32,000 nucleotides of DNA from Nitrosomonas europaea. GTDB lineage: Bacteria > Pseudomonadota > Gammaproteobacteria > Burkholderiales > Nitrosomonadaceae. Every line of letters begins with the position of its first letter. The first letter of the stretch is position 1. The stretch is from positions 1 through 32,000 of the forward strand of contig NZ_FUWK01000011.1 in assembly GCF_900167395.1 (NCBI RefSeq), in the 5' to 3' direction. Below, in pieces: positions 355-10,555 of this stretch. Under the pieces are notes generated by a model, which was not told the origin of the DNA, made no database searches, and was given only the letters and a program-made list of their open reading frames with translations. The position numbers were made by a program, and so were the translations under genes.

Positions 355-1119
355 TTAATCGTTAAAAAAAATTTGCTCACTTATTTTTTTGCGCAAGAGC
401 ATCCAGGCATTCTGATCATTCCACCCAATTACCGTAGACCCATCGGCAAAAACAACGATTGGCGTTGCCATTCTTCCCATTCCAAGAAAGAAGCCGATGT
501 CGTTTAACATATCACGAGGATATTGGCATGAAGTTTTCGCTCGACCATTTATTTCAGAACCTTGCATCACTTTGCGCCAGGCTTGTGAAGGATCATCAGC
601 ACAATATACCCTGGCAGCCTGCCTGAATCCATTTTCAGCCACCCCCACCGGTACCACATATACGGAAGCATTTTCCTGCTCCAGTGTTTTTTCAAGTTTG
701 CGGCAATAAGGACAATCTGGCGCCGACCATATCACTGCCACAGGTGGAGTAGATCGTTTTACCAGCACCAACTGTTCCAATGGAATCTGTGCAAGCTGTT
801 GACGCAGCCAGGTATGTTTATAGGCCGGGTTATCTTCAGCTGGTGACTGAATTACCCACCCTGGCGACTTTATATTCCCCAACCATCCCATGTCCTCCCG
901 GAAATAGGCAGAAGGGCCACCTGCCTGCCCCGTGCGCACGGCATAAAATCCTTTGAAAAGAGTGGGCTCGATATAATGACCTGCCCGTAAGGGAACTCTC
1001 GTTTCCTTTTCAAACGCAGACTTTGCCCTGGGTAAATCCGGTTCCCACATTGGATTCGCCACCGTCAGGCAGGCGAAAGATGCTAAAACTAAAGTAAGTA
1101 ATAATTTTGCAAGCTTCAT
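355..1119 (-). CDS. Periplasmic thiol:disulfide interchange protein, DsbC/DsbG family
   Basis: N-terminal signal peptide MKLAKLLLTLVLASFACLTVA. C-terminal thioredoxin fold with a CPYC active site (SAPDCPYCRKLE) and a second Cys pair, as in DsbC/DsbG. Confidence 0.75.
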   Translation of the reverse strand: MKLAKLLLTLVLASFACLTVANPMWEPDLPRAKSAFEKETRVPLRAGHYIEPTLFKGFYAVRTGQAGGPSAYFREDMGWLGNIKSPGWVIQSPAEDNPAYKHTWLRQQLAQIPLEQLVLVKRSTPPVAVIWSAPDCPYCRKLEKTLEQENASVYVVPVGVAENGFRQAARVYCADDPSQAWRKVMQGSEINGRAKTSCQYPRDMLNDIGFFLGMGRMATPIVVFADGSTVIGWNDQNAWMLLRKKISEQIFFND

Positions 1120-1463
1120 TGCTAATATTCCTAACTGATAAAGTCTGATTTTTTTAACTTACTATCTTCACAAATCCTATTATCATGACAATAGACAAAA
1201 CCATGCACCTCTACGGGAATCCAGTATTTCTGTAATTACATCAAAGTAATGCAATCTAACGTAATATTCCCGCTCTTCTTTAGTAGAACAACACATTCTT
1301 TTCCCCAGATTTTCACAACTACAGATGATTTAGATCACTGCCTCTTCCCTGCTCAACTAAAATATGCCTATTCCAGAGGAAGATTCAAGCATAGGATAGG
1401 ATGGTTATTCTTTTATTTCCGTACTATTTCCTCTTGGTCACCCTGTAGTAAATATCCATTTTT

Positions 1464-2900
1464 ATGTCCATCCGAATCAAATTATTCCTGGCCTTTCTGC
1501 TGACTACGTTCGTAGTGGTGATGGGGATGCATTTTTTCACCCGTTGGTCCCTGGAGAAAGGATTCACCGAGTTCATCGAAAAAAGACAGCAGGAACGGCT
1601 GGATAAAATCATCGATGTACTGGAGGAACACTATGCTGAGCACCGTGGCTGGGGAGAGCTGGCCGGAAACAAGCAACACTGGATTTCGTTATTGTGGCAT
1701 GCCGGCCCGCACCGGCATCGTCCGCCGAAGTGGATTATCGAACAGGCACAGCATGAGCCCGATCGACAGTGGCCACCAGCAGTAACACCCGGAACAGCCG
1801 AAAGAAAGTGGTCTCCATTCGAGTTACGGGTAATACTGCTGGATGCAGATCGATCGATTCTGTTCGGGCGGAAGGAACTGATTTCTCAACTGAGCCTGCA
1901 TCCTGTTCAGTATGAACACCGGACGGTCGGGTTTCTTGGCCTGTTGCCAGGAAACCCGGTCAGTCAGGCCAGCGACATTTATTTCATGGAACAACAGGCC
2001 GACTTTTTCTTCTGGATTGCGTTGACCATGGTAGTACTGTCTGCACTGATCGCTTGGTTGATGGCCTATCACCTCGGACGGCCGCTCAAGCAGATCGCAG
2101 CGGTGGTACAAAGGCTGGCGACGGGGGATTACAAAGCCAGACTACCTGTCATATCGAAGGATGAAATGGGCCAACTGGCACTGAATTTCAATGATACGGC
2201 TGCTGCACTGGAGCAAGCAGAACAAAGTCGCAGACGGTGGGTGGCCGATATTTCTCATGAATTGCGTACACCACTGGCCGTTTTGCGTGGTGAGCTGGAA
2301 GCCATCCTGGATGGGGTTCACCCATTGACTCCCGCAGCGATAGAATCCCTGTCCGGTGATGTGCTGCGGCTCAATCGTCTGACAGAAGATCTTTACCAGC
2401 TTGCTTTATCCGATCAGGGTGCATTGAGTTACCGGAAAGTACTGCTCGACCCCGTACCCTTGCTGCGAGAAGATCTGGCAACGTTCACAACTGATTTCAA
2501 TCATAAGCAGATCAGTGTCAGATGGATCAACCGGCTGTTCAAACCTGTACTGGTCAATGCTGATCCTGACCGGTTATCACAATTGTTCCGCAATCTGCTG
2601 ACCAACAGTCTGAACCATACGGATGCGAGAGGACAACTGGAAATCACGGTTCAGCGCCTGGCAGACAAGCTGGTGATCGAACTGGCGGACAGCAGTCCCG
2701 GTGTCTCGGATCAGGATATCGCGCATCTGTTCGATCGTTTCTATCGTGTCGATCATTCACGCAACCGGCATCTGGGAGGAGCCGGCCTGGGGTTGGCCAT
2801 CTGCAGCAATATCGTCAGAGCGCATGAAGGAACGCTGATGGCATCCCATTCGGCTCTGGGCGGTCTGGCGATACATATCGAGCTGCCAATTACGCCATGA
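1464..2900 (+). CDS. baeS: Envelope-stress sensor histidine kinase, BaeS-like
   Basis: Two TM segments flank a periplasmic domain. HAMP region, H-box SHELRTPLAVLRGELEA, and N/G boxes (LLTNSLNHT, GGAGLGLAIC). 4-bp ATGA overlap with the downstream BaeR-like regulator. Confidence 0.75.
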   Translation: MSIRIKLFLAFLLTTFVVVMGMHFFTRWSLEKGFTEFIEKRQQERLDKIIDVLEEHYAEHRGWGELAGNKQHWISLLWHAGPHRHRPPKWIIEQAQHEPDRQWPPAVTPGTAERKWSPFELRVILLDADRSILFGRKELISQLSLHPVQYEHRTVGFLGLLPGNPVSQASDIYFMEQQADFFFWIALTMVVLSALIAWLMAYHLGRPLKQIAAVVQRLATGDYKARLPVISKDEMGQLALNFNDTAAALEQAEQSRRRWVADISHELRTPLAVLRGELEAILDGVHPLTPAAIESLSGDVLRLNRLTEDLYQLALSDQGALSYRKVLLDPVPLLREDLATFTTDFNHKQISVRWINRLFKPVLVNADPDRLSQLFRNLLTNSLNHTDARGQLEITVQRLADKLVIELADSSPGVSDQDIAHLFDRFYRVDHSRNRHLGGAGLGLAICSNIVRAHEGTLMASHSALGGLAIHIELPITP

Positions 2901-3586
2901 GCCGTATTCTGATCGTCGAAGATGAACCCAGGCTAGCCAGACTGGAAGCCGATTATCTGCAGCATGCCGGTTTCCAGACTCATTGCCTGAGTCAGGGGCT
3001 AGAAGTGATCCCCTGGCTGAAGGAAAATACTGTCGAACTGATATTGCTGGATCTGATGGTACCGGGGCGGGATGGTCTCGATATCTGCCGCGATATTCGC
3101 AGTTTCAGCCAGGTGCCGGTCATCATAGTGACCGCACGAATCGAGGAAATCGACCGTTTGCTGGGACTGGAAATGGGAGCGGATGATTATATCTGCAAGC
3201 CTTTCAGTCCCAGAGAAATGGTTGCACGCGTCAAGGCTGTGTTGCGCAGACTGCAGCCGCCCGCCCCGAACTCGGCGCAGCAGGCGCTCACACTCTCCCC
3301 TCAAAGTTTCAAGGTCCAATACGATGGGCGAGAAATCGAGCTGACTGCCGTTGAATTTCAGTTGCTCTATACGTTATATCAGCAACCGGGGCGTATTTTC
3401 TCGCGCGCCAGACTGATGGATCTGATCTATCAGGATCAGCGCATCGTTTCAGACAGAACGATAGACAGCCACATCAAGAAGCTGAGGAAAAAAATTGCTG
3501 AACTGATTCCGGAAAAAGAAGTGATCTGTTCAGTCTATGGCGCGGGTTATCGCTATGATCCACAATCTGTCGAGCCCGAAGAATAA
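2897..3586 (+). CDS. baeR: OmpR-family response regulator, BaeR-like
   Basis: The receiver domain (ILIVEDEP...LILLDLMVPGRDGL...IIVTARIEEIDRLLGLEMGADDYICKPFSPREMVARVKAVLRR) closely matches E. coli BaeR as I remember it. C-terminal winged-helix domain present. Confidence 0.8.
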   Translation: MSRILIVEDEPRLARLEADYLQHAGFQTHCLSQGLEVIPWLKENTVELILLDLMVPGRDGLDICRDIRSFSQVPVIIVTARIEEIDRLLGLEMGADDYICKPFSPREMVARVKAVLRRLQPPAPNSAQQALTLSPQSFKVQYDGREIELTAVEFQLLYTLYQQPGRIFSRARLMDLIYQDQRIVSDRTIDSHIKKLRKKIAELIPEKEVICSVYGAGYRYDPQSVEPEE

Positions 3587-3665
3587 CGATCCGGTACGGG
3601 ACTTCGTCGCTTCAACTTTCCCACTCATCATTTAACAATGCGATCCTCGCCGTAAGGCGAAAGGT

Positions 3666-5228
3666 TTATTTCACTTTCACTTCGGTTTCATCACTGCCAT
3701 CCGCGAGAGATCGGATCGGTTCGATCAGATTCTCACCACCCGAAGGCGTATCGATACCCAGCAAAACGTGGCTTCTCCGGTAGCCGTAAAGAAAATAAAA
3801 AATCAAGCCGATTCCGGTCCAGACTGGAAACACCAGTTTGGCATCCATCGGTAAAAACAGAAAAAGAATCAGACAACCGCCAATGGCAAGCGGCCCCACC
3901 AGCCAGATCATGGGCGTCCTGAAAGGCCTGGGACGATTTTTGTCTCTGACTCGCAGAATCATGACCGTCAATGCCACGACCAGAAAAGCGAACAATGTTC
4001 CGGAGTTGGAAATATTTGCAAGCTTACCCACCGGCAGGAAAGCTGCTGCTGCCATTACGCCGACACCGGTAACCAGCGTAACGATATACGGGGTTTTGAA
4101 GCGCGGATGGATGCGACTCAATACTTCCGGCAGCAAACCATCACGCGACATGACGAAAAAAATACGCGTCTGTCCGAACAGCATCATGAGAATCACCGAG
4201 GGAAGTGCCAGGAAAGCAGCCAGACCAAGCAGGTTACCAATTTTCTCCCAGCCTATTTCACGCAACACATGCGCCAGCGCTTCATGCGAGCAAACCACCG
4301 GTTGCTGCCCTGCTGCCGCAAGTGATTTGCACTGCGCAGCCATTTCCCTGGAACCGGGAGCGAGCCCCTCGCCTGCGGCATCGACCAGTGGCTGTGCACC
4401 CACTGCGCCGATCACCCCGGCAGATACCAGTAAATAAAACAACGTACACAGCAGCAATGAGCTGATCAGAGCGATCGGAAGATTGCGTTGCGGATCTTTT
4501 GTTTCTTCCGCTGCGGTTGATACCGCATCAAAACCGACATATGCGAAAAAAATGGAAGCAGCCGCAGCAACGACACCCGAAGTTCCCAGTGGCAGAAAAG
4601 GGTCGAAATGGTTCATGTCGGTAGCCGGCAGTGCCAGTGCAATGAACGCCGTCAGAGCGATGATTTTGACTGCAACGAGTATGGCATTGAACATGGCGCT
4701 CTCTCGTGTTCCGATGATCAGCAGGCCGACGACCAGCAGACAGATGACAACCGCAGGCAGATTGATGATACCCCCGGCAAACGGCCCGTTCGCCAGCACA
4801 TAGGGAATTTCGAATCCCAGCGAGGCATTATTCAGCAACCCGACGAAATAGCCCGACCAGCCTACGGCCACTGCCCCGGCTGCAACAGAATATTCCAGTA
4901 TCAACGCCCATCCCACCATCCATGCGATCAGTTCACCAAGCACGGCGTAGGAATAGGTATAAGCAGACCCGGATACCGGTACCATTGAAGAAAGCTCGGA
5001 ATAGCAGAGTGCGGCCACTGCACAAACGAAACCGGCAATGACAAAAGCAATCATCATACCGGGGCCGGCTTTTTGTGCTGCCTCGGCAGTCAGCACAAAA
5101 ATACCTGTGCCGATAATCGCTCCCACCCCCAGCAGCGTCAACTGCCACACACCCAGAGAACGGTGAAGACTTTTCTTTTCGGCTGTAGCCAGAATGGCAT
5201 CTAGCGATTTTACGCGCCAGAAGATCAT
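3666..5228 (-). CDS. Amino acid permease (APC superfamily, cationic amino acid transporter-like)
   Basis: 520 aa, multi-TM. The N-terminus MIFWRVKSLDAILATAEKKSLHRSLGVWQLTLLGVGAIIGTGIF is typical of APC/YhdG-type permeases. Confidence 0.85.
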   Translation of the reverse strand: MIFWRVKSLDAILATAEKKSLHRSLGVWQLTLLGVGAIIGTGIFVLTAEAAQKAGPGMMIAFVIAGFVCAVAALCYSELSSMVPVSGSAYTYSYAVLGELIAWMVGWALILEYSVAAGAVAVGWSGYFVGLLNNASLGFEIPYVLANGPFAGGIINLPAVVICLLVVGLLIIGTRESAMFNAILVAVKIIALTAFIALALPATDMNHFDPFLPLGTSGVVAAAASIFFAYVGFDAVSTAAEETKDPQRNLPIALISSLLLCTLFYLLVSAGVIGAVGAQPLVDAAGEGLAPGSREMAAQCKSLAAAGQQPVVCSHEALAHVLREIGWEKIGNLLGLAAFLALPSVILMMLFGQTRIFFVMSRDGLLPEVLSRIHPRFKTPYIVTLVTGVGVMAAAAFLPVGKLANISNSGTLFAFLVVALTVMILRVRDKNRPRPFRTPMIWLVGPLAIGGCLILFLFLPMDAKLVFPVWTGIGLIFYFLYGYRRSHVLLGIDTPSGGENLIEPIRSLADGSDETEVKVK

Positions 5229-5433
5229 GAACCCTCTCCTTCAATAAAAACAGATAGTTACAAAATCCCTGAATTTAGCGGGAGATAGTGTACAAGAAAT
5301 ACCATGACCATAAGACCGAAATCAGGACAAAAATACCTGTGTCTGCGTCTGGTTATCTGCATGTTCAGGCTTGGCAACATGACAACCGATTGAACATCGG
5401 GAACATATTTGAGTCAGATTGTGTTCCTGCATC

Positions 5434-5451
5434 TTTCACATTCTTTTCACA
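5434..5451 (+). promoter_or_regulatory. Direct repeat TTTCACA-N4-TTTCACA (11-bp register), candidate OmpR-family (BaeR-like) binding site upstream of the Spy-like gene
   Basis: TTTCACA occurs at 5434-5440 and 5445-5451, about 100 bp upstream of the ATG at 5548. One helical-turn spacing is typical of winged-helix response regulators. No experimental support. Confidence 0.3.
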
Positions 5452-5547
5452 ATCTCTGCAAAGTATTTGCAAATTGGCAAAGTATAGTTGTCATCAAGGG
5501 CGGAAAACATTCCGTTCTGTTTCTGAAAATCAACCAGGAGGTTCATC

Positions 5548-5907
5548 ATGAACAAAAAACTTATCGGTATCGTTCTCGCGCTGGCATTTCCTTTGGCGGT
5601 TACTGCCAACCCGGGAGAGCACAAACATGATCATGAACAATACCGGGCGAAGAAAATAGAACGGCTGGACAAAGAGTTGTCCCTGACTGACGACCAGAAA
5701 TCCAGGATTGACACACTCTTCAAACAAAATGGAGAAAAATTCAAGGCGATCCGCGAGGAAACCCAGTCCCAACTGAAAACCATTCTGACACCTGAGCAGT
5801 ATTCCAAACTGCAGGAACTGAAACAGCGCCGGCAGGAACAGTGGCACAAAAAACATCAGGAGAAACTGCAAGAAAGAAAACAGGAACAGTCAGGTACAAC
5901 ACAGTAA
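5548..5907 (+). CDS. Periplasmic Spy/CpxP-family (LTXXQ motif) chaperone-like protein
   Basis: AGGAGG Shine-Dalgarno 7 nt upstream. Signal peptide MNKKLIGIVLALAFPLAVTA. Two LTxxQ motifs (LSLTDDQKSRI, LTPEQYSKL). Highly charged helical sequence. Confidence 0.75.
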   Translation: MNKKLIGIVLALAFPLAVTANPGEHKHDHEQYRAKKIERLDKELSLTDDQKSRIDTLFKQNGEKFKAIREETQSQLKTILTPEQYSKLQELKQRRQEQWHKKHQEKLQERKQEQSGTTQ

Positions 5908-5934
5908 CAACAAAAACATTCACTATTCACTCCG

Positions 5935-5973
5935 CCTGCAATGGTCTCCTATCGCTACCGGCCATTGCAGGCC
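5935..5973 (+). terminator. Perfect 11-bp inverted repeat stem-loop (gcctgcaatgg / ccattgcaggc, 17-nt loop); possible terminator of the Spy-like gene
   Basis: Read directly from the sequence. It lies 28 nt after the stop at 5907 and abuts the stop of the rdgC remnant. No T-tract follows. Confidence 0.35.
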
Positions 5974-5975
5974 AT

Positions 5976-6221
5976 TCATTCGCTGGCTGTTCCGCCCAGC
6001 GCCTCCATCAACTCCGGCAACAATTGCCGCAATTCTTCCGTCATCAGAAAAAAACTGCTGTCAAACTGCTCTTCAGCTGTTTCAGCCGGTTCCCGGTCGA
6101 TATCAAGCAAGACCGACCACTTCAACTGCAAGTTACTGTCCAGAATATGGGATTTTATTCCTATGATGTAGTTCAACCGGACTGGGCTATCAAATAACTT
6201 TCCTCCTTTGGCATGAGCCAC
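5976..6221 (-). pseudogene. Duplicated, diverged 3' end remnant of rdgC (about the last 60-75 codons)
   Basis: The peptide ...ILDSNLQLKWSVLLDIDREPAETAEEQFDSSFFLMTEELRQLLPELMEALGGTASE aligns with the C-terminus of the intact RdgC at 9448-10332 (...ILDENLQLKRLTLLDIDREPAETAEEQFDSNFFLMTEELRQLLPDLVEILGGMTAD). The RdgC N-terminal 200+ aa are absent. Confidence 0.85.
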
Positions 6222-6620
6222 TCTCCTTTATAAAGAAAAAAGCAGCATCGTATGTGAAATACACCACATCTTAGAATCAAGTACCGTCATACCATCGCAA
6301 CAGCAGCATGATATCAATACCCTGATGCCATATATCCAATGACAACCTTTGCCTTATGGAAGCAAAAAAGTTATTAAATAAATTTAGTCTGAGTACCGTT
6401 AACACCGACTCCGGTCAGAAAAGTGCATTATTCGTATTCCCAGATATGACACATAGATAATCTGCCAGCTTGCCACCCGCGATTAATGAAACAGATATGA
6501 AGTCAATCACGGGTACATTGAAATCAGGAAGGCATTTCCTGACGAGTATTCTTAAGTAACAGGTTTTTATCATCCGGTTACTTGAGAATTTATTTAAATA
6601 GCATAAAAAGGAACTTATAA

Positions 6621-7982
6621 ATGATTCTAAGAAGCTGGGCCAGAGGAGTCACATTAGCAACAATATGCATGTTTTCACTCTCTTCCGGAGTAATCCTTGC
6701 TAAAAACAATCGTCCGACACCATTACCGACGTATCAGTACCCTGATGTTTACAATAATTACCTGCAGCCTGTAGCAACCGCAATAGATTATCACTCCGGG
6801 ATGGTTTATCTCTTTAACTATGAAAATGACAAGCTGATTATCGTTGATCCGACAAGCCTCAGCGGTTGGCCTGGGAATGTTCCATTACAACATACTCTCG
6901 TGTTCCCTGAAGGAGATAAGATTTTTATCACATCTGATAATACGGAAGAGCATGCTGCTTACATTATCATATTGAAAGTAAACGATATTAACTGGGATGC
7001 AGGAACAGTCTCACTTGCAGTAGAAACCGTAGTAGCGGCAGATAATCCGGGGACACCAACAGAATTTCCGTTTGTTGAACCCGTTAACAATGTCCAAGCC
7101 ATCCCCAACTGGCTAGTAGGGAGAGGAACAACTCAGATACATGGTCCCACAATATTACCCTACTCAGATTTTGTCTATCTGACTGAACTCACTTCAGACA
7201 GGATACGTGTCATCAACCGTAAAACAAACGAGTTTGTAAGTGGCGTAGATCCCATCGCCATACCTGGTTATACAGAACAAACGCATGGTATCAACTTCAA
7301 TAGGTCCGGAACCATTGGTCTTGGAACCGGATATTTCTTTGATAACAGCGTTATCGACGTTTATAAACCTAATAGAGAAACAGGCGAGCTGCAAACGATT
7401 GGCCAGATCAGACTGGGCGATGAAAAACGGCATGCAGCGTTTACCCATTTTGTATATTGGCTGGATGAGCGATATGCTGTAACTGCTTCCATGCAATTTG
7501 ATAAAACTTCACTTACCCCCACTACTACTAAAAAGATCATCCCACCCAGTGTATGGCTGCTTGATACTTTGGAAGGGACTGCAACAAAAATTCTCGACCA
7601 TACCAATCATGCAAATGGCAAGGGTATTTTCCGCTCTCCTTCCGATATCGCAGTGGTCAATGGCAAGCTCTATATTGCGGAAGAGGATTCGCTTGATTAC
7701 ACATTTGCCAACGATGGATACATTTCTGTATTCGATCTGACCGATCGCTACAAGCCACGATTCCTGAAAAGGCTTAAACCTGGTCGGGAACTGCCCACCG
7801 GTTACGCAGTGGCCCACACAATCAGCCCGACACCGGATAACCGTTATCTGATAGTCGCGAGCTGGGTTTCAGGTTATGTACTAAAAATCGATACAGAAAC
7901 AGATACCGTTGTCAAAATCTGGGGACCGAATGACGGTCTGATCAAACCACATGGTATCTATACTGCCGGCGGTCTTCGCTGA
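6621..7982 (+). CDS. Secreted beta-propeller (YVTN/lactonase-like repeat) protein with blade-associated histidines; function unknown
   Basis: Signal peptide (ATICMFSLSSGVILA). Repeated strand-like segments with His-containing motifs (TQIHGPT, EQTHGINF, AFTHFVYW, AVAHTISP, IKPHGIY). Followed directly by a SCO1-like gene. Confidence 0.55.
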   Translation: MILRSWARGVTLATICMFSLSSGVILAKNNRPTPLPTYQYPDVYNNYLQPVATAIDYHSGMVYLFNYENDKLIIVDPTSLSGWPGNVPLQHTLVFPEGDKIFITSDNTEEHAAYIIILKVNDINWDAGTVSLAVETVVAADNPGTPTEFPFVEPVNNVQAIPNWLVGRGTTQIHGPTILPYSDFVYLTELTSDRIRVINRKTNEFVSGVDPIAIPGYTEQTHGINFNRSGTIGLGTGYFFDNSVIDVYKPNRETGELQTIGQIRLGDEKRHAAFTHFVYWLDERYAVTASMQFDKTSLTPTTTKKIIPPSVWLLDTLEGTATKILDHTNHANGKGIFRSPSDIAVVNGKLYIAEEDSLDYTFANDGYISVFDLTDRYKPRFLKRLKPGRELPTGYAVAHTISPTPDNRYLIVASWVSGYVLKIDTETDTVVKIWGPNDGLIKPHGIYTAGGLR

Positions 7983-8113
7983 TTGTAGTGCAGGAAACCG
8001 ATCTATCTTCTTTTTTATCCAGAAATCATCAGATAAAAATCAGGATAGATCGGTTTAAAAGTAAATACAGCATACAAAAACCGTTCAGAATGATTGATGA
8101 AAAGACAGATAAC

Positions 8114-8710
8114 ATGAAATTGAGAATCTCACGAAGCTACTGTTTTCAGGTTATTACTACCCTATTTCTTATTTTTGTACAAGCTGATATCAGAGCAGCA
8201 ACTATCACGTTATCCCGTCCGGTATCGTTACAGGCAGAAACGATTACTCACCTGAAACAAGCGGATACAACCAATACCAATCAGTGGAAGCTGGTCGTTT
8301 TTGGTTTCACTCACTGCAAAGATGTCTGCCCGATGTCGCTTGCTAATTTATCTATGCTGGTTAAAGCAGCAGTCAGTGAACAGATCGAGCTCAATGGGGT
8401 TTTTGTCACAGTTGACCCGGATAGAGATACAGAAGAGATTTTATCCGGTTATACAAAAGGCTTTGGTCCTGGCATTACTTATTTACGCTTTGAAGGAGAA
8501 GAGCTTGAGCATTTCAAAAATGCTTTTCAGGTAGAGGTTGTCTTCTATACAAAGAATGCAGGTAATCAAACCCACTATCAGGTTGATCACAGTACTACAG
8601 CTTTCCTGATTGATCCGACAGGAAAAATCAGGGTAATTTTTGATGCATTGAAAGATGCTGTCGATGTAGCCAGAATCTTTAAAGATAACAAGGGATTATT
8701 CAAATCATGA
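8114..8710 (+). CDS. SCO1/SenC-family copper chaperone (thioredoxin-like)
   Basis: Start chosen at ATG 8114 (MKLRISRSYCFQVITTLFLIFVQADIRA, signal/anchor). CxxxC motif in FGFTHCKDVCP and the conserved downstream His (YQVDHSTTAFLIDPTGKI), as in SCO1/SenC/PrrC. Confidence 0.8.
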   Translation: MKLRISRSYCFQVITTLFLIFVQADIRAATITLSRPVSLQAETITHLKQADTTNTNQWKLVVFGFTHCKDVCPMSLANLSMLVKAAVSEQIELNGVFVTVDPDRDTEEILSGYTKGFGPGITYLRFEGEELEHFKNAFQVEVVFYTKNAGNQTHYQVDHSTTAFLIDPTGKIRVIFDALKDAVDVARIFKDNKGLFKS

Positions 8711-9336
8711 ATAGAGCTTTGATAGCAGTAGTACTGCTCATGGTCATGGGATCTGTTTCCGGCATGAGAATAAATCCGGATCCTCGGGTAGTTGTTTCTT
8801 TTATGGATAAATCCATTGCACCTGAACTGGATATTTTACGTGTAATGGCAGATATTTCGCCCGACAACCACCATCTTGTATTCCAAGTTAAAACACGGGG
8901 AGAACGTATACAGGGAAACGACCATGATTATCTGCTTCTTCACATCACACATGGAAAAACTTATGTTCTTCTTTTACCTATCAATAAGGAAAAAGAAAAT
9001 CAGATGCTGGTATATGAACGCTTACCTCAACCCGATGACGATGATCTCCTCATTCTTGGCAAATTCAAGGGAAATTCGCACTTGACAAACTTTAATATCA
9101 CTTCCATTTTTCGGGGAGGAGAATTCAGTGTGCCGCTAGACTGGATTGATTTCAATACAAATTTCAGTTTTGATGCTTATACAGTTCAAGCCAGGATCAA
9201 AGGGGATACGCTGAAAATCAGTAAAGTATACGATTGGGCAAGAAAGGGAAAAACACACAATAATGAAAAGCCACTCTCTGCTATTACATTGCTTAATAAA
9301 ATCTGTGCTCCCAAAAGTAATAATCAGCGGCTCTGA
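8707..9336 (+). CDS. Hypothetical secreted protein (no family recognised)
   Basis: ATGA overlap with the SCO1-like gene suggests translational coupling. Signal peptide MNRALIAVVLLMVMGSVSG. No motif I can name. Confidence 0.55.
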   Translation: MNRALIAVVLLMVMGSVSGMRINPDPRVVVSFMDKSIAPELDILRVMADISPDNHHLVFQVKTRGERIQGNDHDYLLLHITHGKTYVLLLPINKEKENQMLVYERLPQPDDDDLLILGKFKGNSHLTNFNITSIFRGGEFSVPLDWIDFNTNFSFDAYTVQARIKGDTLKISKVYDWARKGKTHNNEKPLSAITLLNKICAPKSNNQRL

Positions 9337-9356
9337 CTATAGTAATGAAACCATCT

Positions 9357-9397
9357 GAATGTAACCAAACAAAACATTTATTTGGTTACATTCTTTT
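9357..9397 (+). terminator. Rho-independent terminator (13-bp perfect stem gaatgtaaccaaa/tttggttacattc followed by TTTT)
   Basis: Read directly: stem 9357-9369 and 9381-9393, T-run 9394-9397. Located between the convergent 8707-9336 gene and rdgC. Confidence 0.7.
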
Positions 9398-9447
9398 ATA
9401 AGAAATACTGGAAACAACGTTTTATCAGAGAAGCACTACTCTGGGCG

Positions 9448-10332
9448 CTAGTCAGCTGTCATTCCACCTAATATCTCAACCAAGTCCGGCAACAATTGCC
9501 GCAATTCTTCCGTCATCAGAAAAAAATTGCTGTCAAACTGCTCTTCAGCTGTTTCAGCCGGTTCCCGGTCGATATCGAGCAAAGTCAGCCGTTTCAGCTG
9601 CAGATTTTCATCCAGAATGAACGAGATTTTGTCTCGCCAGGTCATCGCCAGCCTGATGACTTCCTTACCCGTCCGGACATGCCGGGTGATTTCCTGTGGA
9701 TCGGGTGACTGCCGGATATAGCTCACTGAAACCTTCTTATCCTCACGACTGCGGAAAATACTGTCACTATCGACCGAAAAAATGGCAGGCGGATCATCGC
9801 CTGAAAGCCATGCCGTCATGGCGGATGTCGGTGCCATAGTTGTCCTGATGCGTTTCAGCCCGATACCAGTCGATTTGATGAATGCTTCAATCAGGGCATC
9901 CGCTTTAGAAGCACTTGCGCCTTCAACAATGAACCAGCCACCCACCGGATCGATCCATGCATGACTCCGCTGCCGGATGGCAAACGCACGCGATAACAGT
10001 TCACGATAAGCTGCTTCCTTGATTTCTTTCATTTGTTTGCGGCCAGGCGCATAACCCTGATGCGATTCCATTTCCTGAGCACGTACTTTGGCCAGCTGAT
10101 TGACGACGGATGCAGGCAGCAGCTTTTTCTCAGTTCCCAGCGCAATCAGCATCTGCTGTCCGTAGCTGTAAACCAGATCGGCCTCTGCGATCCCCGGTGG
10201 AACCCACCCCCGGCTTTGGGGTTCCAGCCCCAGACAACCCTGCAAGGTTTGTTTTGCCAGATACGCTTCAAGTTCGTCCGAGGTAATCACTTCACCGGCA
10301 AGACGGTAAATCAGTAAATTTCTAAACCACAT
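9448..10332 (-). CDS. rdgC: Recombination-associated protein RdgC
   Basis: 294 aa with the characteristic N-terminus MWFRNLLIYRL and overall RdgC-like sequence. Confidence 0.9.
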   Translation of the reverse strand: MWFRNLLIYRLAGEVITSDELEAYLAKQTLQGCLGLEPQSRGWVPPGIAEADLVYSYGQQMLIALGTEKKLLPASVVNQLAKVRAQEMESHQGYAPGRKQMKEIKEAAYRELLSRAFAIRQRSHAWIDPVGGWFIVEGASASKADALIEAFIKSTGIGLKRIRTTMAPTSAMTAWLSGDDPPAIFSVDSDSIFRSREDKKVSVSYIRQSPDPQEITRHVRTGKEVIRLAMTWRDKISFILDENLQLKRLTLLDIDREPAETAEEQFDSNFFLMTEELRQLLPDLVEILGGMTAD

Positions 10333-10479: not shown

Positions 10480-10555
10480 TGGCGCCCTGGAGACGAATCG
10501 AACGTCCGACCTACCCCTTAGGAGGGGGTCGCTCTATCCCCTGAGCTACCAGGGC
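10480..10555 (-). tRNA. tRNA-Arg (anticodon CCT), CCA encoded
   Basis: Hand-folded reverse complement: GCCCTGG-TA-GCTC AGGGGAT AGAGC-G-ACCCC CTCCTAA GGGGT-AGGTC-GGACG TTCGATT CGTCT-CCAGGGC-G-CCA. This gives a 7-bp acceptor stem, a TTCGA T-loop and anticodon CCT. Confidence 0.9.

Follow-up and report, generated by a model that had tools for sequence, protein, structure and literature searches.

We analyzed a window of 32,000 nt from Nitrosomonas europaea (contig NZ_FUWK01000011.1 of assembly GCF_900167395.1, positions 1 to 32,000) and focused on three co-directional open reading frames (ORFs) of its + strand, at 6621-7982, 7988-8710 (as originally listed) and 8707-9336. A first-pass annotation, made from the sequence alone, had described them as genes for a secreted propeller-like protein, a SCO1/SenC copper chaperone and a secreted protein of no recognized family, and all three ORFs, including the secreted 453- and 209-residue products, are present at these positions. 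The region 6621-9336 is one operon. Its first gene (6621-7982, + strand) codes for a Sec-exported protein of 453 residues that is predicted to fold as a seven-bladed β-propeller (hereafter, the propeller). The second gene (8090-8710, + strand, with the start revised as described below) codes for a SCO1/SenC copper chaperone (Pfam PF02630) of 206 residues, or 198 residues if translation begins at ATG 8114. The third gene (8707-9336, + strand) codes for p209, a secreted protein of 209 residues that is a predicted β-sandwich and is assigned to no family. ORFs of the minus strand inside 6621-9336 do not exceed 102 residues and have no family support; they were disregarded.

The SCO1 ORF had originally been listed with a GTG start at 7988, which gave a product of 240 residues. 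Directly 3' of the propeller stop codon lies an intercistronic stem-loop with 25-nt arms (7995-8056, + strand), for which RNA folding gave ΔG of -31 kcal/mol and z=-8.1, with none of 200 shuffled sequences being equally stable. Because this hairpin covers the region of the listed GTG, and because SCO1 orthologues are annotated at 196-227 residues, we consider the true start to be ATG 8090 or ATG 8114. Thus, the identity of the gene assigned in the first-pass annotation stands, whereas its start does not. The hairpin itself is probably an mRNA-stabilizing or attenuating element that would set the output of the structural gene above that of the accessory genes. The ATG of p209 overlaps the SCO1 stop codon (ATGA; TCATGAAT), in agreement with the translational coupling proposed earlier for these two genes. 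A terminator-like hairpin followed by TTTT (9357-9393, strand not assigned; 17-nt arms, 94% complementary; ΔG -15.5 kcal/mol, z=-4.2) is located between the convergent p209 and rdgC genes and appears to close the three-gene unit. On the other side, 5' of the propeller gene, there is a non-coding leader or promoter region of 474 nt (6147-6620, + strand). It contains no supported ORF, and in a promoter/terminator consensus scan its promoter-like sites were not above shuffle expectation. An Rfam scan of 5800-9500 produced a chance-level match only (E=0.96). The upstream regions of seven Nitrosomonas loci were also aligned in search of an NsrR- or Fnr-type operator, and no conserved palindrome was found; only close strains align, with the last ~50 nt before the gene being conserved.

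The propeller has an N-terminal Sec-type signal (MILRSWARGVTLATICMFSLSSGVILA/KNN) and no twin-arginine motif. Its sole cysteine is residue 16, within the signal peptide, so that the mature protein is devoid of cysteine. There are 11 histidines among the 453 residues and no HH dipeptide. An AlphaFold2 model based on a 32-sequence alignment (pLDDT 86.2, pTM 0.84) consists of 28 strands that make up seven four-stranded blades, the C-terminal strand 443-448 closing the first blade. The propeller fold suspected in the first-pass annotation is thus borne out by the prediction.

Six of the propeller's histidines recur in the blades, and we read them in register against the YVTN-type 'P-x-G' turn. These are H91 (codon 6891-6893, motif PLQHT, register LQ-H91-T), H174 (7140-7142, QIHGPT, QI-H174-G), H222 (7284-7286, QTHGINF, QT-H222-G), H276 (7446-7448, FTHFVYW, FT-H276-F), H399 (7815-7817, VAHTISP, VA-H399-T) and H444 (7950-7952, KPHGIYT, KP-H444-G). 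In blade 6 the histidine-equivalent place is taken by S341 (7641-7643, SP-S341-D); all these codons are on the + strand. The first-pass annotation had pointed out the last five histidine motifs, all of which exist, are invariant and lie on first strands, and had overlooked the one with H91. Each of the six histidines coincides with the beginning of a blade's first predicted strand or precedes it by one to two residues. We take this strand to be the innermost one, as in the usual propeller topology. If so, pseudo-sevenfold symmetry and the strand register together would bring the six histidines into one ring around the central channel. At a histidine frequency of 2.4%, we estimate the random probability of histidines occupying the equivalent strand position in six of seven blades at about one in 10^9. 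None of the six varies among 32 close homologues or among 17 homologues reaching down to 23% identity, and the invariance extends to cyanobacterial and archaeal members and covers three phyla plus an archaeon. N227, Y238, D315, S341, E354 (within the AEED motif, residues 353-356) and the C-terminal R453 are likewise invariant.

Sequence searches did not place the propeller in any Pfam or NCBIfam family above the cutoff. Matches to the YVTN repeat, NHL, cytochrome d1 and the L-NosZ model were all sub-threshold. The strongest tie is to the YVTN repeat TIGR02276, which scores 27.0 bits (cutoff 27.85) in the window propeller and matches 28 of the 32 family members. No solved structure in PDB is related to the propeller by sequence, even if the family profile is used at E≤10; this includes the chains of thiocyanate dehydrogenase (TcDH). 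A Foldseek comparison of the model with PDB returned YVTN, lactonase, NirN, NirF and hydrazine-synthase propellers at E of ~1e-9 to 1e-8, none of which stands out, and the top matches (1L0Q, E=4e-10, and 3U4Y) are of the YVTN/lactonase/YncE type. At the level of the modeled fold, then, the protein is a member of the YVTN/lactonase-type β-propeller superfamily. Membership in better defined families was rejected in each case. The match to YncE (8PTF, E=0.003) covers a single blade pair (residues 336-430) and full-length homology is lacking. Pfam SBP56 (PF05694), the methanethiol oxidase family, does not match the window propeller at E≤1 and matches one of the 32 family members at E=0.005, below the cutoff, even though UniRef automatically names several members 'methanethiol oxidase'. 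As for N2O reductase (NosZ, clades I-III, clade III being the lactonase-type L-NosZ), the propeller has six invariant histidines, neither CuA nor DXHH, and no profile homology: hhalign against five clade I NosZ sequences (from plasmids) gave a probability of 1.6%, the NCBIfam L-NosZ model scored 15 bits against a cutoff of 700, and NosZ is absent from the top 50 Foldseek matches. The earlier impression that the protein matches none of NosZ, TcDH and SBP56 therefore holds, and YncE can be added to the list. The propeller belongs to no described family; YncE, lactonase and YVTN denote its fold class only.

The product of the second gene is, judging by its sequence, a bona fide Sco1/SenC protein (PF02630, E=3.9e-30; 105 bits against a cutoff of 22.8). 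The CxxxC motif noticed previously is CKDVC (8315-8329, residues 76-80 of the 206-residue form), and the DHS histidine follows 90 residues on, at residue 166. The N-terminus is a membrane anchor or signal. Copper transfer to a client remains putative. The partner p209 has an N-terminal signal peptide, and in alignments Met20, the mature N-terminus, and Cys200 are invariant. As the first-pass annotation had it, p209 is of no recognized family: no Pfam or NCBIfam family was found above the cutoff (a match to DUF1292 at E=0.009 is below it and was rejected), no PDB entry was matched by sequence using the profile, and none was matched by fold at E≤0.001. The model of p209 (pLDDT 78) is an all-β sandwich, for which fold searches returned generic Ig-like matches only (E≥0.007, TM-score ≤0.38). 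Essentially all of its 122 homologues come from nitrifier and Myxococcota clusters. By analogy with PCuAC, which accompanies Sco, we speculate that p209 might be a second Cu(I) chaperone, or else a subunit.

The family is small: an exhaustive profile search of 1.84 billion representative proteins recovered 167 members at E≤0.001, many of which are fragmentary. When one genome per GTDB species was scanned, with the alignment of close homologues as the seed since the broad alignment was too divergent, 68 propeller loci came to light; a Nitrosococcus locus was found separately. About 55 of the 68 belong to Nitrosomonas, Nitrosospira, Nitrosovibrio, related Burkholderiales metagenome-assembled genomes (MAGs) and marine Myxococcota MAGs. 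In these loci the order propeller-SCO1-p209 is kept wherever the contig allows it to be seen, usually with the 4-nt overlap between SCO1 and p209. The exception is Nitrosospira sp. NpAV, in which SCO1 and p209 are not adjacent. The three-gene unit is present in almost all ammonia-oxidizing bacteria, and the Sco-linked form, a point beyond the first-pass annotation, is restricted to nitrifiers plus the Myxococcota loci.

Some nitrifier genomes show variations on this layout. Two divergent copies of the propeller are present in each of Nitrosomonas halophila Nm1 (L041/L068), Nitrosomonas sp. ANs5 (L033/L056), a Burkholderiales MAG (L055/L060) and MAG UBA8640 (L047/L059). Both copies have SCO1 and p209 alongside, except in UBA8640, where the second copy is at the end of a short contig. 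In the tree, the lineage of second copies groups with N. mobilis and Nitrosococcus. In Nitrosospira (L002 7635-8909; also L003, L028, L029, L031, L039, L058 and L064), a gene for a secreted protein of 424 residues is found beside the cluster or between the propeller and SCO1 genes. It was considered as a propeller paralogue in Nitrosospira multiformis and rejected on sequence comparison. The protein has a weak, below-cutoff similarity to the ExtI porin model (E=1.6e-9) and may be an outer-membrane channel associated with the propeller system. In Nitrosospira loci, p209 is also followed, at a distance of 1-3 kb, by an OmpR-type kinase-regulator pair.

The remaining relatives of the propeller are 35-51% identical and have neither SCO1 nor p209. 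In Motilimonas cestriensis and M. eburnea the gene order is MarR, AurF-family diiron N-oxygenase (PF11583), FAD/NAD/2Fe-2S reductase, propeller, and a class-I glutamine amidotransferase fused to thiol peroxidase. The same order occurs in Shewanella salipaludis (L080) and, with the amidotransferase unfused, in Aestuariibacter sp. (L081). A Microcoleaceae cyanobacterium (L074) has propeller, AurF, amidotransferase, a secreted 273-residue protein and peroxiredoxin, and the divergent neighbor in an Oceanospirillaceae MAG (L070) is an NirBD-type NAD(P)H nitrite reductase. Genes for MOSC/YiiM, a family implicated in the reduction of N-hydroxylated compounds, and for DUF2024 lie within a few kilobases of the propeller in Shewanella (L080 2861-3860) and Aestuariibacter (L081 11508-12938); a DUF2024 gene is also present on an archaeal contig (L078 9690-9723). 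The three domain types shared by the AurF-containing clusters are those of DnfA, DnfB and DnfC, an AurF-type oxygenase, a 2Fe-2S electron-transfer protein and a class-I amidotransferase, which in Alcaligenes produce free hydroxylamine from glutamine-derived nitrogen (PMC9136411, PMC11440038, PMC11160463). This link of the propeller family to hydroxylamine-forming clusters is the new element of our analysis, and it gives a substrate lead different from the thiols and thiocyanate suggested by the first-pass annotation.

A secreted protein of ~250 residues co-occurs with the propeller in four Sco-less loci (L070 8464-9228, L071 8566-9306, L072 9191-10021, L074 8526-9347), and probably also at L081 9569-10381. 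It has invariant HPDFDDTP and WHSHWVVL motifs and matches nothing in Pfam, NCBIfam or PDB. Over a C-terminal segment it is weakly related to p209 (hhalign probability 82%, E=1e-5), which hints, if only tentatively, at a related secreted partner of the propeller in both contexts. Other relatives add to the diversity of the family. The cyanobacterial homologues (L074 4290-6158; L075; L076 3630-6131) have N-terminal extensions of 170-380 residues, and the Crocosphaera homologue has a large insert within its first blade; neither the extensions nor the insert match a known domain. The Nitrososphaeraceae homologue resides on a genuinely archaeal contig (Spt4, Rpb7, NadA and NadC are its neighbors) without an informative partner, and archaeal members are few. 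In a Glaciecola MAG (L069 171-11211) the homologue is surrounded by phage-like genes, namely, a dUTPase-like ORF, a large one weakly matching PhiKZ gp119 and small ones without assignment. Sco1 and Dnf genes are absent from this locus, which may lie in a prophage.

What might the propeller do? We favor, with a confidence that falls just short of even, the view that it is a periplasmic multicopper oxidoreductase which is matured by Sco1 and whose substrate is hydroxylamine or a nitrogen oxide derived from it (NO/HNO). The apoprotein would be exported unfolded through Sec, and Sco1, perhaps together with p209, would load it with copper in the periplasm. A multinuclear copper center would be built in the hub from the six invariant histidines and the invariant Ser/Asp of the seventh blade, a design that N2O reductase (CuZ) and thiocyanate dehydrogenase (a tri-copper site) also use. 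The enzyme would then oxidize or otherwise convert hydroxylamine, or NO/HNO arising from it, in an auxiliary route of moderate flux beside HAO. Several observations argue in this direction. Since export is by Sec and not by Tat, with the apoprotein unfolded, the cofactor is to be inserted in the periplasm. Since the mature propeller has no cysteine, a disulfide or thiol-reductase role of Sco1, as for CuA, is excluded and metal delivery remains. The multinuclear copper reading follows from the one-histidine-per-blade hub, which matches the arrangement in TcDH and NosZ, and from Sco1 being the constant partner in nitrifiers. Ammonia oxidizers make hydroxylamine in the periplasm. The informative contexts of the family are this periplasm, DnfABC-like clusters, MOSC/YiiM and NirBD, often with peroxiredoxins added, and all of them are concerned with the formation or handling of N-hydroxy or N-oxide compounds. 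Our candidate substrates are therefore hydroxylamine or the first products of its oxidation, a choice for which gene context is the independent support and which we hold at somewhat less than an even chance.

A number of observations weigh against this assignment, and expression data provide some of them. In N. europaea ATCC 19718 the genes are ordered glnA1 (NE0504), rluD (NE0505), NE0506, rdgC (NE0507), NE0508, SCO1 (NE0509) and NE0510, so that by synteny the propeller should correspond to NE0510, SCO1 to NE0509 and p209 to NE0508. In ammonia-limited and oxygen-limited chemostats, respectively, transcripts per million were 111 and 130 for NE0510, 61 and 86 for NE0509, and 154 and 122 for NE0508, as compared to 2094 and 2467 for nitrosocyanin and 7424 and 1778 for nirK (supplement of PMC6967387). 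The cluster is thus expressed ~20-fold below nitrosocyanin and 15-65-fold below nirK, and NE0508-NE0510 do not change significantly between the two conditions, that is, they do not respond to O2 limitation. Low expression and the lack of this response argue against a main-flux catabolic role. The proteome share is 0.105% for NE0510 and 0.200% for its N. multiformis orthologue Nmul_A2237 (supplement of PMC5960693). The propeller is therefore a real, moderately abundant protein, present below the level expected of a main-flux catabolic enzyme. The idea that the upstream 119-residue gene encodes the abundant LTXXQ protein Q82TW7 was rejected, as Q82TW7 is NE1752 and unrelated. Distribution also speaks against the assignment. 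Neither comammox Nitrospira nor methanotrophs, both of which make hydroxylamine, yielded a member, and the family is only sporadic in ammonia-oxidizing archaea, which make hydroxylamine as well. No propeller orthologue is listed for N. ureae in the proteome supplement, the Myxococcota carriers have no visible nitrogen-cycle context, and several relatives have uninformative neighborhoods. Moreover, the Motilimonas, Shewanella, Aestuariibacter and cyanobacterial clusters are DnfABC-like by domain architecture and not by direct alignment with Alcaligenes Dnf, and gene association cannot separate hydroxylamine from NO, HNO, N2O or a peroxide of the same pathway.

A bolder version of the same idea, which we regard as unlikely, is that the propeller supplies a copper enzyme hitherto missing from aerobic nitrogen oxidation, a periplasmic one with a tri- or tetra-copper site at which hydroxylamine or NO is converted. 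Examples would be the postulated NO-to-nitrite oxidoreductase of ammonia-oxidizing bacteria and a copper hydroxylamine oxidase; the enzyme would be common to autotrophic nitrifiers, DnfABC-type heterotrophs, some cyanobacteria and a few Nitrososphaeraceae. A third enzyme handling hydroxylamine or NO beyond HAO in ammonia oxidizers has indeed been postulated (discussed in PMC5960693). Among the open-access papers searched, we found none on the propeller or on the locus tags NE0508-0510 and Nmul_A2237; the senC of nitrifier papers is a different, sNOR-linked gene.

It might be argued that the substrate is a sulfur compound (a thiol or thiocyanate) and that the propeller is an SBP56- or TcDH-like copper oxidase matured by Sco1. 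The pairing of a propeller gene with SCO1/SenC, which Eyice and colleagues are said to have described in 2018 for mtoX, the UniRef names and the peroxiredoxin genes beside non-nitrifier relatives, which would suit an H2O2-producing oxidase, agree with this. TcDH (5F75, 6SJI) also gives the highest query-normalized, full-length TM-score by Foldseek (0.55-0.56), a value comparable to those of unrelated propellers. Yet the family shows the isolated SBP56 match noted above and no relation to TcDH at E≤10, none of the neighborhoods examined contains sulfur-metabolism genes, and the carriers are obligate ammonia oxidizers for which, to our knowledge, no thiol or thiocyanate metabolism has been described. 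A sulfur substrate is accordingly quite improbable. Still less probable, at no more than a slight chance, is a stripped-down N2O reductase, namely, a CuZ-type propeller without CuA and with a separate cytochrome or cupredoxin as its electron donor. The predicted histidine-lined seven-bladed hub would fit such an enzyme, the PHG and PLxHT-like motifs recall NosZ motif strings cited for use in L-NosZ screens, and weak NCBIfam L-NosZ matches recur in 13 of 32 members (best E=3e-4). The profile comparisons given above (1.6%; 15 bits against 700) do not support it, however, and neither do the absence of cysteine and hence of CuA, the absence of DXHH and GXHH, the six histidines and the lack of nosD, nosF, nosY, nosL and nosR among the neighbors. 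Furthermore, ammonia oxidizers are net N2O producers and, as far as we know, not consumers.

The propeller could also be no enzyme at all, binding, buffering or delivering periplasmic copper for AMO, NirK and nitrosocyanin, with Sco1 and p209 as loading partners. The very high periplasmic copper demand of nitrifiers, a histidine ring with a chaperone (compatible with storage), constitutive moderate expression and a left flank that constitutes an envelope-stress module (BaeSR-like, CpxP/Spy-like and DsbC-like genes) would all be in keeping with that role. We nevertheless think it unlikely, because in other genera these stress genes do not accompany the cluster, because relatives in DnfABC-like clusters have neither Sco1 nor an evident copper-trafficking context, and because some 10 further invariant polar residues, N227, Y238, D315, S341, E354 and R453 among them, look more like an active site. 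Lastly, copper might not be involved: the propeller would then be a lactonase- or YncE-type hydrolase or a binding protein with Zn, Ca, Fe or no metal, and Sco1 would serve another client. The fold matches and the YVTN repeat in 28 of 32 members lean that way, as do the non-nitrifier relatives without an adjoining Sco1. On the other hand, a conserved ring with one histidine per blade occurs in none of the lactonase, YncE and YVTN families, and Sco1 and p209 are linked to the propeller in ~55 loci of two phyla with a shared transcript architecture, a linkage that persists while all other neighbors change. We consider such a propeller very unlikely.

The proposed oxidoreductase is of interest because the hydroxylamine/NO chemistry of ammonia oxidizers controls their NO and N2O emissions, and because it bears on the fate of the hydroxylamine made by DnfABC-type heterotrophs (PMC11160463, PMC11440038). 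NE0510 is a testable and genetically tractable candidate, and Shewanella and Motilimonas, both culturable, have homologues. Should the substrate be wrong, a correct copper reading would still make the family a third independent one of histidine-lined copper propeller enzymes and add a new Sco1 client without cysteines.

The surroundings of the operon bear on its history. The 3.3-kb insert 6147-9461 has 40.9% GC as compared to 49.6% and 51.9% in its flanks, and third-codon-position GC is 36-41% in the cluster genes as compared to 60% in glnA. The insert is bounded by two copies of a 157-nt direct repeat (84% identity, spacing 3472), both on the minus strand. The left copy (5990-6146) is a degenerate duplicate of the rdgC 3'-end, and the right one (9462-9618) is inside the intact rdgC gene (9448-10332, - strand; RdgC Pfam E=6.4e-97). 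By tblastn, an ORF of 81 residues at 5976-6221 translates to the RdgC C-terminus, and a tRNA-Arg(CCT) gene (10480-10555) is located just beyond rdgC. The rdgC remnant, the tRNA and the low GC of the insert together give the impression of a scar left long ago by integration or recombination. Genomes similar to N. europaea have the same rdgC-repeat structure, plus an additional insertion sequence. In another Nitrosomonas locus (L014) the triad occupies the same slot, from the CpxP-like gene to rdgC, in inverted orientation, and in N. eutropha it is found elsewhere, among insertion sequences, a TnpB remnant and toxin-antitoxin genes. A neighbor-joining tree, computed without support values and hence indicative, places Nitrosococcus inside Nitrosomonas and Myxococcota as sister to all ammonia-oxidizer copies, which suggests incongruence with the species tree. 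These features lend some weak support to the first-pass proposal of delivery as a mobile unit. A mobile element proper is a different matter: the insert has no integrase or transposase, no further copy of the cluster or the propeller was detected in the viral contigs, plasmids and phage genomes scanned, and the unit is near-universal in ammonia-oxidizing bacteria. Clearly, nitrifiers have exchanged and rearranged the unit; it behaves as a lineage-wide operon and not as a recognizable mobile element. Farther to the left are genes for a DsbC-like thioredoxin-fold protein (355-1119, - strand), a BaeS-like histidine kinase and a BaeR-like regulator (1464-3586), an amino-acid permease (3666-5228, - strand) and a CpxP/Spy-like LTXXQ protein of 119 residues (5548-5907). 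Together, 355-5907 form the envelope-stress module mentioned above.

How does the family compare with known systems? YncE, YVTN and lactonase propellers are of the same fold class, yet they lack the invariant one-histidine-per-blade ring, the Sco1 and p209 partners and the nitrifier or Dnf context. SBP56/MtoX is a copper-dependent periplasmic propeller-type oxidase encoded beside Sco1/SenC; the present cluster differs from it in having p209 and no MauG as a partner. The CuZ site of NosZ holds four copper ions on seven histidines. The propeller resembles NosZ in its predicted histidine-lined seven-bladed hub and in its proposed periplasmic maturation by dedicated copper chaperones, and NosZ acts on a small nitrogen oxide, as the propeller may. 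It differs in ending at the last blade, without the C-terminal CuA cupredoxin domain (CX2FCX3HXEM), in having six histidines instead of seven and no DXHH/GXHH pair, in being exported by Sec instead of Tat and in the absence of nos accessory genes. The nearest functional analogue of the family is TcDH, a single-domain periplasmic seven-bladed propeller of ~450-480 residues with three copper ions in the central tunnel and no CuA domain (PMC9456337). The two are alike, going by the predicted fold, in being single-domain periplasmic propellers of similar length without CuA, and are distinguished by ~11% identity and by different organisms and gene context. With the Dirammox system of Alcaligenes the Sco-less clusters share the three DnfABC domain types; the Alcaligenes cluster dnfT1RT2ABCD (PMC9136411) has no propeller gene and the window has no dnf genes, so that the link is one of association only. 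The best-supported reading, close to the 'distinct Cu-propeller enzyme' of the first-pass annotation, is that of a family which would follow the design of a histidine-lined copper propeller with a dedicated chaperone, its copper and catalysis being putative, and which stands outside every family described so far.

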